From the NCBI GenBank assembly GCA_963666345.1, contig OY762721.1, positions 2,272,001-2,336,000 on the forward strand: DNA of 64,000 nucleotides. The letters are read 5' to 3'. The translations under genes and the position numbers were made by a program. This stretch comes from Desulfatiglandales bacterium. Lineage in GTDB: Bacteria; Desulfobacterota; DSM-4660; Desulfatiglandales; Desulfatiglandaceae. The notes under the pieces are model-generated. The model had not been told where the DNA came from. It saw nothing but the letters and a program-made list of their open reading frames with translations, and searched no databases. Shown piece by piece: positions 9,181 through 15,716 of the stretch. How positions within the stretch are numbered: position 1 is the first letter of the stretch; each line of letters begins with the position of its first letter.

Positions 9181-9219
9181 TTTAGATCACTTTAGTCATT
9201 TTAGGCACTTTAGTTCACT
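9181..9219 (-). repeat. solo arm of the nonamer repeat family (AAAGTGACT-like)
   Basis: Reverse complement AGTGAACT AAAGTGCCT AAAATGACT AAAGTGATCT AAA; same units as 10491 and 15592. Confidence 0.7.
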
Positions 9220-9892: not shown

Positions 9893-9968
9893 AACAGTCC
9901 TTTCCAGGCAACGCGCCTTTTAAAATTGATTAAATGATTTGGCTCTTCCCCAAATTAGCTGGAGAAGA

Positions 9969-10190
9969 GGATTCAAGGACCCAAGAGGTCAAGGATTCGA
10001 GGGTTTATTTGAAAATCTTGTCCTTATTTTATATTCCTTTGACCAGAGTTCCTATAACTTACTCCGGAGCTTAAGATCCTTGTACTTTTTCAGCAGTTCA
10101 CTTGAACCCTTGAAACTGGGAACCCGCTGCGAAGCTGTGGGACTGAGCGAAGCGTAAGCGGAGCAAAGAATCCCCGGCCCCTTAGCCCCT
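9969..10190 (-). mobile_element. miniature element B: inverted octamer arms, decayed four-helix-bundle 5' fragment, and a nested 53-bp insertion
   Basis: Arm GGATTCAA GGACCCAA GAGGTCAA GGATTCGA (9969-10000); arm TTGAACCC TTGAA[insert]GAATCC CCGGCCCC TTAGCCCC; minus-strand interior from 10096 reads LLKKYKDLKLRSKL*ELWSKEYKIRTRFSNK. Confidence 0.7.
10109..10173 (+). repeat. 65-bp exact repeat, copy 1 (53-bp insert plus GAA duplication and flanks)
   Basis: Identical to 12357-12421. Confidence 0.9.
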
Positions 10191-10291
10191 AAAAAAGATC
10201 ATGTTGCTCAGTCCTGTTTAAGACCAATCAATCGAGAGAATATGATCCGATGCTTTTTTTGCCCGCGCAAAAAAGTTGATTTTAAGTGGGT

Positions 10292-10319
10292 AACATACCA
10301 TTTTATTACCCAATGTCAA
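10292..10319 (-). promoter_or_regulatory. putative sigma70 promoter of infA
   Basis: Minus strand TTGACA-N16-TATGTT with extended -10 TG. Confidence 0.45.
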
Positions 10320-10490
10320 TAAAATGAATGCAAAAAACCTGATTCGCCTTGGCTCTATCGAGCTTCACCGAGGTGAACAAAGAAAAGAAGCGGCCTTTTA
10401 TTTTGAAAAATAATGTTATAGGATCAGTTCATTATGGAACCTTGCCTTCTGGGCAAGGCAGGGGAAAACTGGTCTGCCTGGATGGATCAG

Positions 10491-10599
10491 AAGTGACTAA
10501 AGTGTCTAAAATTTAAAGTGCCTAAAATGGTGGAGTCGCTTCGCTCCGCTATCTTTAAAAACAGCAGAAATCCTTAACTTCTGGCACTATAGGCATCTT
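10491..10599 (+). repeat. nonamer-arm miniature element with a GGAGTCGCTTCGCTCC core
   Basis: AAGTGACT AAAGTGTCT AAAATTT AAAGTGCCT AAAATGGTGGAGTCGCTTCGCTCCGC ... degenerate inverted arm AACTT CTGGCACTA TAGGCATCT. Confidence 0.65.
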
Positions 10600-10676
10600 G
10601 ACACCAGGCCCTCTTTGCGGCTTTCACGGGGCTTAAGCTGAATTGAAGAAAAACCTTAATCTTTAGGACATCTGCC

Positions 10677-11279
10677 GTGTATAAGGAAGAACCTTTCATT
10701 TCAGATATATCAGGGGTCGTTTTAACGGGCGGCAAGAGCAGTCGTTACGGGACAAACAAGGCGTATGTAAAGATATCAGGCACGCCCATGATCCTTAAGG
10801 TCATCAAGGTGATGAGAGAGCTTTTCAGACATATCGTTCTTATCACAAATGACCCTGATGAATACGCATCTCTTGGTTTTGACATGTATGAAGATATTAT
10901 CAAGGGGTTAGGGCCCCTGGGCGGGATATACACCGCCCTTCTGTCGATTGAAGGAGGTGCCGGTTTTTTTACCGCCTGCGATATGCCGTTTATCAAAAAA
11001 GACCTGGTTGAATATATGCTTGAGGTGGGTTCAGGCTTTGACGCCGTGGTTCCGAGGGTTGAAGACAAGACCGAACCCCTTCATGCCATTTACACCAAGG
11101 CATGTATCCCGGCCATAAAAGAGGTAATTGATAACGGTGAGTTTCAAGTCAACAGGATTTATCCCATGATATCAGTTAGATACGTGGAAATGGAGGAGAT
11201 AGCCAGGTTTGATCCCGGCTTTAACTCCTTTTTCAACATAAACAGACCTGATGATTTAAGGAAGGTGATCGATCCATGA
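10677..11279 (+). CDS. mobA: molybdenum cofactor guanylyltransferase
   Basis: GVVLTGGKSSRYGTNKA, GPLGGIYTAL, ACDMPF, EPLHAIY, FFNINRPDD. Confidence 0.92.
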   Translation: MYKEEPFISDISGVVLTGGKSSRYGTNKAYVKISGTPMILKVIKVMRELFRHIVLITNDPDEYASLGFDMYEDIIKGLGPLGGIYTALLSIEGGAGFFTACDMPFIKKDLVEYMLEVGSGFDAVVPRVEDKTEPLHAIYTKACIPAIKEVIDNGEFQVNRIYPMISVRYVEMEEIARFDPGFNSFFNINRPDDLRKVIDP

Positions 11280-12310
11280 CTGTCTTGATAGTCTCTGTCA
11301 GTCTTGCCATAGGCATATCAGCTGCCTGTTCTCTTATTGAAGCGGTTTTATATTCAGTGCCGCTGAGGCATATTGAAACCCTCGTAAAGGATGGGAAAAG
11401 AGGCGGACGGCTTTTTAAGGCAATGCGTGGTAACGTGGAAAGGCCCATTGCCGCCATCCTTTCTCTGAATACAATAGCAAATACAGCGGGCGCCGCTGTT
11501 GCCGGCTGGGCCGCTGCCGAGGTATTCGGGAATCAGTGGCTAGGCTATTTTTCAGCTTTTTTTACGCTTTCAGTGCTTCTGTTCTCCGAAATTCTGCCAA
11601 AGACCGCCGGCGTGGTTTACGGAAGAGCCCTTGTCCCGGTTGTCGCCTACTGCCTCAAGGCACTGGTATGGCTGATGACTCCGGCCATATGGCTGAGCAG
11701 CATGTTAACCAGGGTTATTTCAAGAGGCCGAAAAGAGGAGGCCATTACAAATGAAGAGATAAGAATAATGGCACAGCTCAGCATGAGGGCGGGGGGCATA
11801 ACCATTCATCAGGAGCAGGCCATCGAAAATGTCCTCACTCTTCAAAACAAGGCCGTAAAGGATGTCATGACTCCCAGAACGGTAATTTTTTCTCTTAACG
11901 AGGATATGACCCTGGAAGAGGCAAACCGGGCCTCTGCCAAGTGGGAACACAGCAGGTTCCCGGTTTACAGCAAAGACAGGGAAGACATAGTGGGAATTGT
12001 ATTGACAAAAGAGTTTTTTATTTCCCTTTCGCAGGGAAAGGGGGATATGAGATTGAGCCAACTTATGCGTCCCGTGCACTTCGTGGTTGAAACCGCGGGT
12101 CTTCCAGGGGTGCTGATGGAATTTCTTGAATCAAGGCAGCATCTCTTTGTCGTGCTTGATGAGTACGGGGGACTTTCAGGCCTTGTGTCGCTTGAAGACA
12201 TACTGGAGGAAATCCTGGGCAGAGAGATAATCGATGAATCCGATCAGGTAATCGACAAAAGGGCCCTGGCGCGTCAACGAAGGACGCGCCCGCTGTTTTC
12301 AGGAAAATAA
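11276..12310 (+). CDS. CNNM (DUF21) + CBS-domain membrane protein
   Basis: CSLIEAVLYS, AILSLNTIANT.GA, LFSEILPKT, VKDVMTPR, VVLDEYGG..GLVSLEDILEEILG.EI.DESD; ATGA overlap with mobA. Confidence 0.9.
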   Translation: MTVLIVSVSLAIGISAACSLIEAVLYSVPLRHIETLVKDGKRGGRLFKAMRGNVERPIAAILSLNTIANTAGAAVAGWAAAEVFGNQWLGYFSAFFTLSVLLFSEILPKTAGVVYGRALVPVVAYCLKALVWLMTPAIWLSSMLTRVISRGRKEEAITNEEIRIMAQLSMRAGGITIHQEQAIENVLTLQNKAVKDVMTPRTVIFSLNEDMTLEEANRASAKWEHSRFPVYSKDREDIVGIVLTKEFFISLSQGKGDMRLSQLMRPVHFVVETAGLPGVLMEFLESRQHLFVVLDEYGGLSGLVSLEDILEEILGREIIDESDQVIDKRALARQRRTRPLFSGK

Positions 12311-12347
12311 TTGTCCATAAATTATTTGGTCAATCCAGGATGTCTTT

Positions 12348-12438
12348 CACTTGGATCTTGAAACTGGGAACCCGCTGCGAAGCTGTGGGACTGAGCGAAG
12401 CGTAAGCGGAGCAAAGAATCCTTGGACCCTTGAACCCT
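12348..12438 (+). repeat. solo octamer arm containing copy 2 of the 65-bp repeat (12357-12421)
   Basis: CAC TTGGATC TTGAA[53 bp]GAATCC TTGGACCC TTGAACCC. Confidence 0.85.
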
Positions 12439-12466
12439 TTTACACAATGATGACAGGTCCTGCCGA

Positions 12467-15521: not shown

Positions 15522-15591
15522 AATTTGGCCTTTGTCTTTGAAGGGAGTTTCTCCCATAATAGAAATCCTGGTTTTCTGAGCCAAGTCGGGA

Positions 15592-15716
15592 AAAGTGACT
15601 AAAGTGACTAAAGTTGAAAATGACTAAAGTGACTAAAGTTGAAAATGACTAAAGTGACTAAAGTTGAAAATGACTAAAGTGACTAAAGTGACTAAAATGG
15701 CGGAGTCGCTTCGCTT
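15592..15716 (+). repeat. tandem higher-order repeat (25-bp unit = 9+9+7) ending in the GGAGTCGCTTCGCT core
   Basis: AAA(A/G)TGACT AAAGTGACT AAAGTTG x3, then three more nonamers and AAAATGGCGGAGTCGCTTCGCT. Confidence 0.9.

Follow-up and report, generated by a model that had tools for sequence, protein, structure and literature searches.

The window analysed here is a stretch of 64,000 nucleotides (nt), positions 2272001-2336000, of the single-contig genome (4.16 Mb, 48% G+C) of a Desulfatiglandales bacterium, and the subject of this paper is a short element that stands in it twice, embedded in arrays of octamer repeats. As a first-pass annotation of the sequence had recognized, a 53-mer occurs in identical form at 10115-10167 and 12363-12415, both times on the + strand and in the layout TTGAA, 53-mer, GAATCC, within a 65-bp block of identity (10109-10173 and 12357-12421) whose adjacent outer bases differ at each end. 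The octamers around it are different at the two loci, copy 1 being preceded by TTGAACCC and followed by CCGGCCCC and TTAGCCCC, and copy 2 being preceded by TTGGAT and followed by TTGGACCC and TTGAACCC. No further match to the 53-mer with up to three mismatches was found in the 64-kb window, nor any in 100 dinucleotide-preserving shuffles, and genome-wide there are exactly two occurrences of the 53-mer and exactly two of the 65-mer, on the + strand only. The insertable unit, of which the 53-mer is the core, is 56 nt long (10115-10170 in copy 1), and the homology flanking it at the window copies amounts to just 6 nt on the left and 3 nt on the right. Its deletion does restore a canonical octamer, as had been proposed: what is left is TTGAATCC, the commonest among the octamers counted genome-wide (203 + 178 occurrences), and genuine unoccupied paralogous sites with this form are present in the genome. 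The unit is one of a family of interspersed repeats, small, structured and uncatalogued, which is modular and resembles the repetitive extragenic palindromes (REP), bacterial interspersed mosaic elements (BIME) and BOX elements; what sets it apart is that it is nested in arms that belong to an expanded PF05635/intervening-sequence (IVS)-like element and stacked head-to-tail in an ordered way.

The genes between the two copies (10677-12310, + strand; Pfam scan) are ordinary and lie outside the element. They encode a MobA-like nucleoside triphosphate (NTP) transferase (10677-11279, + strand; PF12804, E 9e-33) and a CNNM/CBS-domain membrane protein (11276-12310, + strand; PF01595, E 6.4e-31, and PF00571); copy 1 is located between a glyoxalase-family gene and the MobA-like gene, and copy 2 in a 156-bp spacer 3' of the CNNM/CBS-domain gene. 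A separate family of 9-bp tandem repeats (AAAGTGACT / TTTAGTCAC) also occurs in the window, at 15590-15696, 9181-9219 and 10491-10528, its longest array holding ~12 copies.

The exact search thus returned the two window copies only, and the family as a whole is far larger. About 60-70 related copies were found in the genome by blastn-short and nhmmer, and a covariance model, R1, built from 44 distinct sequences, has 76 matches in it (E <= 0.01). R1 matches copy 1 at 10112-10170 (genome 2282112-2282170, + strand, 77.9 bits, E 3.2e-17) and copy 2, identical to it, at 12360-12418 (genome 2284360-2284418, + strand, 77.9 bits), each with the exact 53-mer, and the top copies of the genome reach 81.4 bits. 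The model match, GAAAC...GAAGAA, has a length of 59 nt rather than 56 nt because neighbouring units have one GAA in common. By crude open reading frame (ORF) calls all 76 copies are extragenic and lie between genes, the few calls that place one inside a gene being ORFs read through repeats. The copies fall into subtypes defined by a hairpin 1 that is either short or long and a hairpin 2 that comes in three versions, five of the six combinations being found; the modelled lengths are 59 nt for subtype A, 67 nt for B, 59 nt for C, and 48 or 56 nt for the short forms. The window copies form a small sub-line of A, marked by ACTGGG and by GCTGTGG with a T·T mismatch in hairpin 1; both marks recur in the copy at 1969280, which differs from them by one base, and the copies at 3155445 and 1755823 also have the GCTGTGG mismatch. 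Searches of Rfam 15 (E <= 1 to 5) with the window region, 10 foreign loci and 6 composite loci gave no relevant family, and a description of the motif was absent from Rfam and from the open-access literature searched. The idea that the unit length is a multiple of 8, which would keep the octamers in phase, was rejected: it holds for A (56) and B (64) and is broken by the short forms (45, 53) and by the periods of 53 and 49 nt seen in other genomes.

Read on one strand, the unit consists of GAAACYGGGAA, hairpin 1, A, hairpin 2 and AA; the first segment is invariant in the alignment of the family, and both hairpins are supported by covariation. Hairpin 1 has 8 bp, of which the lower five are fixed (C-G, C-G, C-G, G·U, C-G) and the upper three covary (CG/UA/AU, CG/GC/AU), and its loop is mostly GAA. 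Hairpin 2 opens with CU / GA / GC ... GC / GA / AG, that is, with two Watson-Crick pairs and two purine-purine positions, and continues into a variable, covarying stem, which is followed by AA. In copy 1, hairpin 1 lies at 10123-10141 (+ strand; CCCGCTGC-GAA-GCTGTGGG), on the basis of folding and the pair counts of the alignment, and shows the conserved G·T/U wobble together with the subtype-specific T·T mismatch; hairpin 2, at 10143-10168 (+ strand; CU-GA-GC ... GC-AA-AG), rests on folding and on the covariation of two column pairs of the alignment, 45/61 and 46/60, and contains the purine-purine internal pairs and a GUAA tetraloop. By sequence identity, the corresponding hairpins of copy 2 are at 12371-12389 and 12391-12416, both on the + strand. 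Among the 44 distinct sequences, 94.0% of the paired cells can pair against 87.2% after shuffling, five pairs are changed on both sides, and the covariation score was attained by none of 500 shuffles; when the partner columns are shifted, pairing falls to 37-50%. In a larger alignment of 110 matches (81 distinct), which was fitted to the model and is hence biased towards it, the figures are 92.8% against 85.3%, eight pairs have undergone changes in both partners, and 77 of 81 sequences have the G·U pair.

Folding is better for the top strand than for the bottom one, both as RNA (-20.4 against -12.1 kcal/mol) and as DNA (-8.4 against -6.0 kcal/mol), and this asymmetry, together with the G·U pair, shows that it is one strand that matters, whether in the form of RNA or of single-stranded DNA. 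The commonest A variant folds at -20.6 kcal/mol (z = -2.28), and the window sequence at -15.0 kcal/mol (z = 0.04), which is no better than shuffled sequences because of the T·T mismatch in its hairpin 1. The two GCGAAGC motifs pointed out in the first-pass annotation are both present, at 10129-10135 and 10147-10153 in copy 1, but only the first belongs to the family at large. The apex of hairpin 1 is C-GAA-G inside GCGAAGC in most copies, with GTA, TAA, CAA, AAA and longer inserts as alternatives, and the second heptamer of the window copies is lineage-specific; what is conserved are the lower stems and the linkers, not the heptamer. A hammerhead-like reading of CUGA...GAAAC was also considered and rejected, for the invariant G8/A9 are missing (by eye) and Rfam gave no ribozyme match.

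The octamers, for their part, are not a free-standing repeat family but the arms of an IVS-like element with a PF05635 gene. The conserved flanks common to many copies are parts of composites of ~450-620 bp with inverted ends, whose consensus is CAACT-N3-TTGGAGA-N2-A-N-CC; there are 69 such ends, resembling terminal inverted repeats (TIR), in the genome, and each arm of a composite consists of a terminal repeat and an octamer array. The translated core matches PF05635 (23S_rRNA_IVP, a four-helix bundle), usually with in-frame stops, and one composite copy that was read through showed the domain with three of them. PF05635 has 39 matches in the genome, which reduce to 36 loci (composites are found, for example, at genome positions 379925-380535, 2733370-2733865 and 2066743-2067057), a few of them intact, and at E <= 1e-5 there are 27 matches here against a maximum of 14 in any of 150 sampled genomes. 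Of the 76 motif copies, 27 have a PF05635 locus within 350 bp, and 23 of the 36 loci have at least one copy; those 27 all face outward, 14 being downstream in sense and 13 upstream in antisense orientation, with no other arrangement. PF05635 was found in 86 of the 150 sampled genomes and the motif in 4 of them, so the two are not co-distributed.

Remnants of such composites are recognizable at both window copies. To the left of copy 1 the array (10099-10114, + strand) reads CAC TTGAACCC TTGAA up to the junction, a start of CAC and octamers that recurs in the arms of PF05635 elements, and to its right (10171-10189, + strand) follow TCC, CCGGCCCC and TTAGCCCC. An opposite arm on the - strand (9941-10003), composed of TIR-like GGCTCTTCCCCAAATTAGCTG and reverse-complement octamers, is 73-81% identical over 48-70 bp to the left ends of nine composites elsewhere in the genome (blastn). 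At copy 2 the left array (12348-12362, + strand) is CAC TTGGAT CTTGAA, and the right one (12419-12447, + strand), TCC TTGGACCC TTGAACCC TTTTACACAA, resembles a composite 3' arm without its terminal repeat, with 87.5% identity over 32 bp to the arms of four composites (blastn). Copy 1 lies in one arm of a decayed, gene-less composite (remnant 9941-10200, with 9941-10003 as its other arm), and copy 2 in a solitary arm.

Two further observations concern these flanks. Another family of repeated flanks occurs in ~10 places (for example 1215450-1215700, 1321960-1322200 and 2900000-2900150), in which conservation extends over up to ~250 bp upstream of the unit and ~90 bp downstream, in the layout ...CCGCCGTTTCAATGGAGCAC, octamers, units and TACGAG..CAGCCGCTTAAATAAG. 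The outward terminal repeats of the PF05635 composites (TTGGAGATGATCC, once GGAGGTGATCC; for example at 380511-380531) resemble what we take, on a presumed 16S rRNA 3' end, to be a strong Shine-Dalgarno sequence, and a fair share of the composite ends have an ATG 2-13 nt after the terminal repeat; judged by sequence, PF05635 elements might be a source of ribosome-binding sites for adjoining genes.

The unit itself has a preferred site. Among the 62 full-length copies tabulated, the left junction is CTTGAA in 28, CTCGAA in 6 and TTCGAA in 4, so that YTYGAA accounts for 38; CTCCAA occurs in 5, AAAGAA, which is internal to tandem units, in 8, and other sequences in 11. The right flank is TCC in 36 copies, ACC in 10 (in 7 of which it is the next unit) and CCC in 6. 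Orientation is strict: in all 29 cases of an array with an adjoining motif the two share a strand, and the opposite arrangement does not occur. At least 10 composites have nothing at the equivalent 5'-arm site (...TCCAATCC or ...TCGAATCC, then ttcatttag), and the same 5'-arm octamer is occupied by C, A or a short form in 17 of 31; the 3'-arm sites are empty or hold B, A, or A and B together. The octamer occupied is the fourth in typical 5' arms, the first in 3' arms and the second at window copy 1. Units in this genome are either single or arranged head-to-tail, and subtype A, the most uniform one, is the 5' unit in all six mixed dimers. Five identical A copies are found in at least four unrelated flanks, and some copies are located in unique flanks free of octamers, e.g. 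those at 2020858, 2028898, 946226, 378650 and 627280. Since equivalent arm sites carry 0, 1 or 2 units, A is 5' in the dimers and identical units have unrelated flanks, the unit behaves as a separable, site-directed module. The earlier view of a very small element parasitizing another repeat family can thus be retained for the element, which is separable and strand-specific, with filled and empty sites, but not for its host.

The GAA on either side of the insert had been taken for a target-site duplication, and this it is not: at five filled sites the left side reads CAA and the right side GAA, and the GAAAC and GAAGAA ends are conserved also where octamers are absent from the flanks, so that both GAAs are conserved ends of the motif. 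The 56-nt unit has no terminal inverted repeats, its ends (GAAAC... / ...GAAGAA) being direct. Gene conversion, which the first-pass annotation had offered as an alternative to an enzyme, certainly contributes: recombination or gene conversion among copies is active, because variants of hairpin 1 and hairpin 2 are found in five of six combinations, and the copy at 3317625 is a recombinant between TCGAACCCGC of an arm and GGGAACCCGC of the unit. The two DNA contig runs of the source sample revealed no insertion polymorphism, their contigs merely breaking at repeats.

Beyond this genome, a BLAST search with the 65-mer gave matches in 8 of 40 relatives. A pattern scan of a species-representative collection listed at least 104 loci, many of them chance matches in high-GC taxa, and about a third of the listed loci are full motifs; R1 matched 34 of 34 loci picked by eye from this list, the remaining 70 being outside this check. 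The metagenome-assembled genomes (MAGs) with full motifs are titled Desulfobacteraceae, Desulfobacterales, Syntrophobacteria, 'delta proteobacterium' and Thermodesulfobacteriota, with one 'archaeon'. Whole-genome R1 counts in five other Desulfobacterota genomes are 12, 43, 31, 31 and 137, and of 150 other genomes sampled evenly across the phylum only 4 match, with 1, 25, 29 and at least 36 copies; the family is patchy, yet high-copy where present, since few sampled genomes match and most of these have many copies. An octamer-flanked copy occurs in another family of the same order (L042). In some other genomes 3-5 units follow one another head-to-tail, at periods of 53 and 49 nt, and other lineages have the unit as a module within quite different composites, which form long hairpins and whose ends are ACAGGTTGCT..., GACGGCACAG... 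or TAGCCCGGATATTTCATGAAT...; about seven old copies of the GACGGCACAG type are also present in this genome, e.g. at 220897. Two other genomes, G042 and G044, have convergent doublets of the unit 50-110 nt apart.

Some of these foreign contexts may be described more closely. In G042 and G044 (L172, L178, L157-L168), long-hairpin composites of ~200 nt with ends ACAGGTTGCT.../...AGCAACCTGT contain the unit and small hairpin modules (GGCGTAC-loop-GTACGCC and AATCCCGCC-loop-GGCGGGATT), sometimes with convergent doublets. In a Syntrophobacteria MAG, G045 (L224, L227), some units end arrays of a ~7-nt AAATGCG-like tandem repeat, an echo of the octamer association in the present genome. The possibility of a tandem RNA like those of type III antitoxins was considered for the arrays of G041 and dropped, as these adjoin ordinary genes, for example an acyl-CoA dehydrogenase-like ORF.

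As to enzymes that could move the unit, the genome has 17 matches to Y1_Tnp, including three genes similar to REP-associated tyrosine transposases (RAYT); the two RAYT-like genes that were scanned reach 58.6 and 75.2 bits with the NCBIfam model REP_Tyr_transpos, under its cut-off of 80. One RAYT-like gene of 342 amino acids (genome 2026896-2027924, - strand), which has a DnaA-C-terminal-like tail, is bracketed by its own perfect 28-bp inverted repeat (GGGGGACGCCCATGATTTTATGCTTTTC), unlike the unit, and a protease gene separates it from the closest unit, at a distance of 1 kb. RAYT-like homologues are found in 69 of the 150 sampled genomes against 4 for the motif, and none was detected at E <= 1e-20 in the motif-rich genome G183. 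The genome also harbours an IS200-like element in six near-identical copies (e.g. genome 3695198-3695689), which apparently is active; it has a TTAAAT junction on both sides, and its end hairpins, CCACCAGTTTTACTGGTGG and CCACCCCTTTTAGGGGTGG, are different from those of the unit. A gene between two units was considered as the mover as well, and rejected, for such intervals contain housekeeping-type ORFs only (named by eye, the window genes by Pfam).

The best explanation of these observations, in our opinion, is a separable module that spreads in a site-directed manner, and we would give it about an even chance of being correct. Units would be added to YTYGAA sites by a process that is strand-specific and takes its guidance from the left flank, most likely one that acts in trans and cuts and joins, or copies, single strands; as insertion would leave the left target intact, a later unit would come to lie 5' of an earlier one, and gene conversion between copies would reshuffle the hairpin halves and add or remove units. 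The pattern observed, with a fixed, surviving left junction without duplication, strict strandedness and newer units on the 5' side, is what would be expected of left-flank-guided single-strand insertion, which we infer to be the route. A bolder form of the proposal, which we consider unlikely, is that the 56-nt unit might be a self-contained micro-transposon of an undescribed kind, strand-specific, with a two-hairpin single-stranded DNA (or RNA-templated) form, which would insert after YTYGAA with the target kept, give rise to ordered head-to-tail stacks, and be moved in trans by an enzyme of scattered Desulfobacterota lineages, the octamer arrays possibly being in part footprints or landing pads. 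A number of results weigh against site-directed spread. No R1 match at E <= 0.01 lies within ~1.5 kb of 35 Y1 loci in six genomes, the sole match near them being weak (12 bits, E 0.24); a search of the genome for an IS91-type Y2 gene, prompted by the CTTG^AA junction, found none, the control search being without a match in any genome; and the two reverse transcriptases (RVT_1) of the genome are at best 6.6 kb from a unit. No link of the motif to a Y1/RAYT gene or to a reverse transcriptase was found in these searches. There is no replication-strand bias, the leading strand holding 43 of the 76 copies (p = 0.30; origin and terminus from cumulative GC skew), the two hairpins of the unit are unlike each other, and their variants have been recombined in five of six combinations. 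The window subtype, moreover, is found at five loci in spite of its broken hairpin 1 pair, several of the six dimers are probably of one origin, which leaves perhaps three or four independent events, and the empty and filled states among near-identical composites can stem from gene conversion or precise deletion. Part of this fits a passive module, without mobility of its own, that would be carried with the PF05635/IVS-like composites and their decayed arms and change in copy number by gene conversion, unequal crossing-over or slippage between octamer arrays, an explanation that is possible but somewhat doubtful. Both window copies are in remnants of composite arms, the 27 copies in PF05635 arms are joined by others most of which have repeated flanks, and the recombined hairpins, the arm-unit recombinant at 3317625, the missing strand bias and the want of a linked transposase all agree with it. 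It does not account, however, for the copies in unique octamer-free flanks or for the mere 6 and 3 nt of flanking homology at the window copies, and the unit's presence in quite different composites of other lineages means that it has therefore moved between contexts at some point; nor does unequal crossing-over predict that A is always 5' in mixed dimers.

Whether the fold is selected as RNA bears on the same question, as a protein-binding, processing or transcript-stabilizing site whose spread would be secondary is compatible with the other readings; as the explanation of the family we find it quite improbable. The covarying hairpins with their fixed lower stems and nearly universal G·U pair, the GNRA-type loop and tandem G·A-type pairs of hairpin 2, the asymmetry between the strands and the conservation across families of the phylum are all what such an RNA would show, but the same features would suit a single-stranded DNA substrate. 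Co-orientation with genes is weak (43 of 76 copies run in the same direction as the gene upstream and 47 of 76 in that of the gene downstream, by crude ORF calls), and the unit is antisense to the PF05635 gene on the 5' arms in 13 of 13; it is patchily distributed, with tens of copies beside unrelated genes, it has a weakened hairpin 1 in the window copies, and no Rfam family matches it. Mobilization as a REP, or as a doublet of REPs (REPIN), by a RAYT, a Y1 HUH transposase, was one of the mechanisms proposed in the first-pass annotation. The Y1 and RAYT-like genes of the genome, the short structured extragenic nature of the unit and the REPIN-resembling doublets of G042 and G044 are in its favour, but we now regard it as highly improbable in view of the lack of an R1 match at E <= 0.01 around the Y1 loci, the different inverted repeat of the 342-amino-acid gene, the discordant distribution of RAYT-like homologues with none detected in G183, the different hairpins and target of the IS200-like element, and the head-to-tail arrangement of units here in place of inverted doublets. 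The probability of a simple segmental duplication of the 65-bp stretch within the locus, finally, is practically negligible: the two copies are 2.2 kb apart, identical and in the same orientation, but their identity ends at exactly 65 bp with unrelated sequence beyond, and there are 74 more copies genome-wide, including that at 1969280.

To our knowledge, small structured repeats shape bacterial intergenic DNA, and their origin and mover are obscure outside REP/RAYT and a few families of transposable elements of the miniature inverted-repeat type (MITEs). The present family offers clean material for this problem, with a short one-strand fold, a fixed junction, ordered dimers and natural empty and filled sites in one complete genome, and its value is increased by relatives in other lineages that carry the same unit inside different composites; it makes testable the question whether the module spreads by an enzyme-driven single-strand reaction or by recombination alone. 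The recognition of the octamer family as the arm of a much-expanded PF05635 IVS-like element bears on these poorly understood elements, and a practical gain for annotation is the covariance model, which identifies 76 non-coding sites in this genome and hundreds in related ones.

Among known systems, the unit is, like a REP, a short imperfect palindrome, extragenic and present in many copies, and REP, BIME and REPIN elements are, in the parts of the accounts used here (PMC3337134, PMC3116915), likewise short GC-rich structured extragenic repeats that number tens to hundreds and form mosaics, the doublets having a parallel in some genomes with our motif. It differs from the REP/REPIN-RAYT system in that no RAYT gene is flanked by units and RAYT-like genes are not co-distributed with them, and from REPs in its head-to-tail arrangement here, its two different hairpins with conserved single-stranded linkers, and its patchy occurrence over several families. 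IS200/IS605 elements insert 3' of TTAC and show an orientation bias related to the lagging strand, as far as the portion of PMC5027513 drawn upon goes; as with IS608, the unit would insert 3' of a specific left flank and retain it without duplication, and it is strand-specific, with hairpins near both ends and a 3' end that resembles the target, in this case GAA (PMC5027513 and PMC3201880, both as excerpted). Unlike them, it is only 56 nt long, with dissimilar hairpins, no lagging-strand bias and no cognate TnpA found, and it lacks the terminal inverted repeats and target-site duplication of classical MITEs. The apex of hairpin 1 corresponds in most copies to the d(GCGAAGC) mini-hairpin (PMC13037366, in the sections used), although other apex loops occur and the second heptamer is not conserved. 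The host composite has its counterpart in the IVS of 23S rRNA genes with an S23p/IVP ORF, exemplified by the Coxiella IVS, where ~0.4-0.6 kb with terminal inverted repeats surround a PF05635-type ORF (PMC4990558, in the passages relied on); unlike these, it occupies 36 dispersed loci, intergenic where examined, mostly with in-frame stops and with octamer arrays as arms. A close likeness in architecture may be drawn to the BOX elements of Streptococcus pneumoniae, composite intergenic repeats of the form boxA-boxB(n)-boxC, which have pairing ends, a self-folding internal module that is absent or present several times head-to-tail, and an uncertain mover, according to the part of PMC3049150 consulted. 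The unit, too, is an independently folding module that varies in tandem number (0-2 per arm site here, arrays of 3-5 elsewhere), but it differs from BOX in being a two-hairpin module conserved across families of a phylum, which in this genome is set into octamer arrays at a fixed YTYGAA junction, within a host composite that carries a PF05635 gene.

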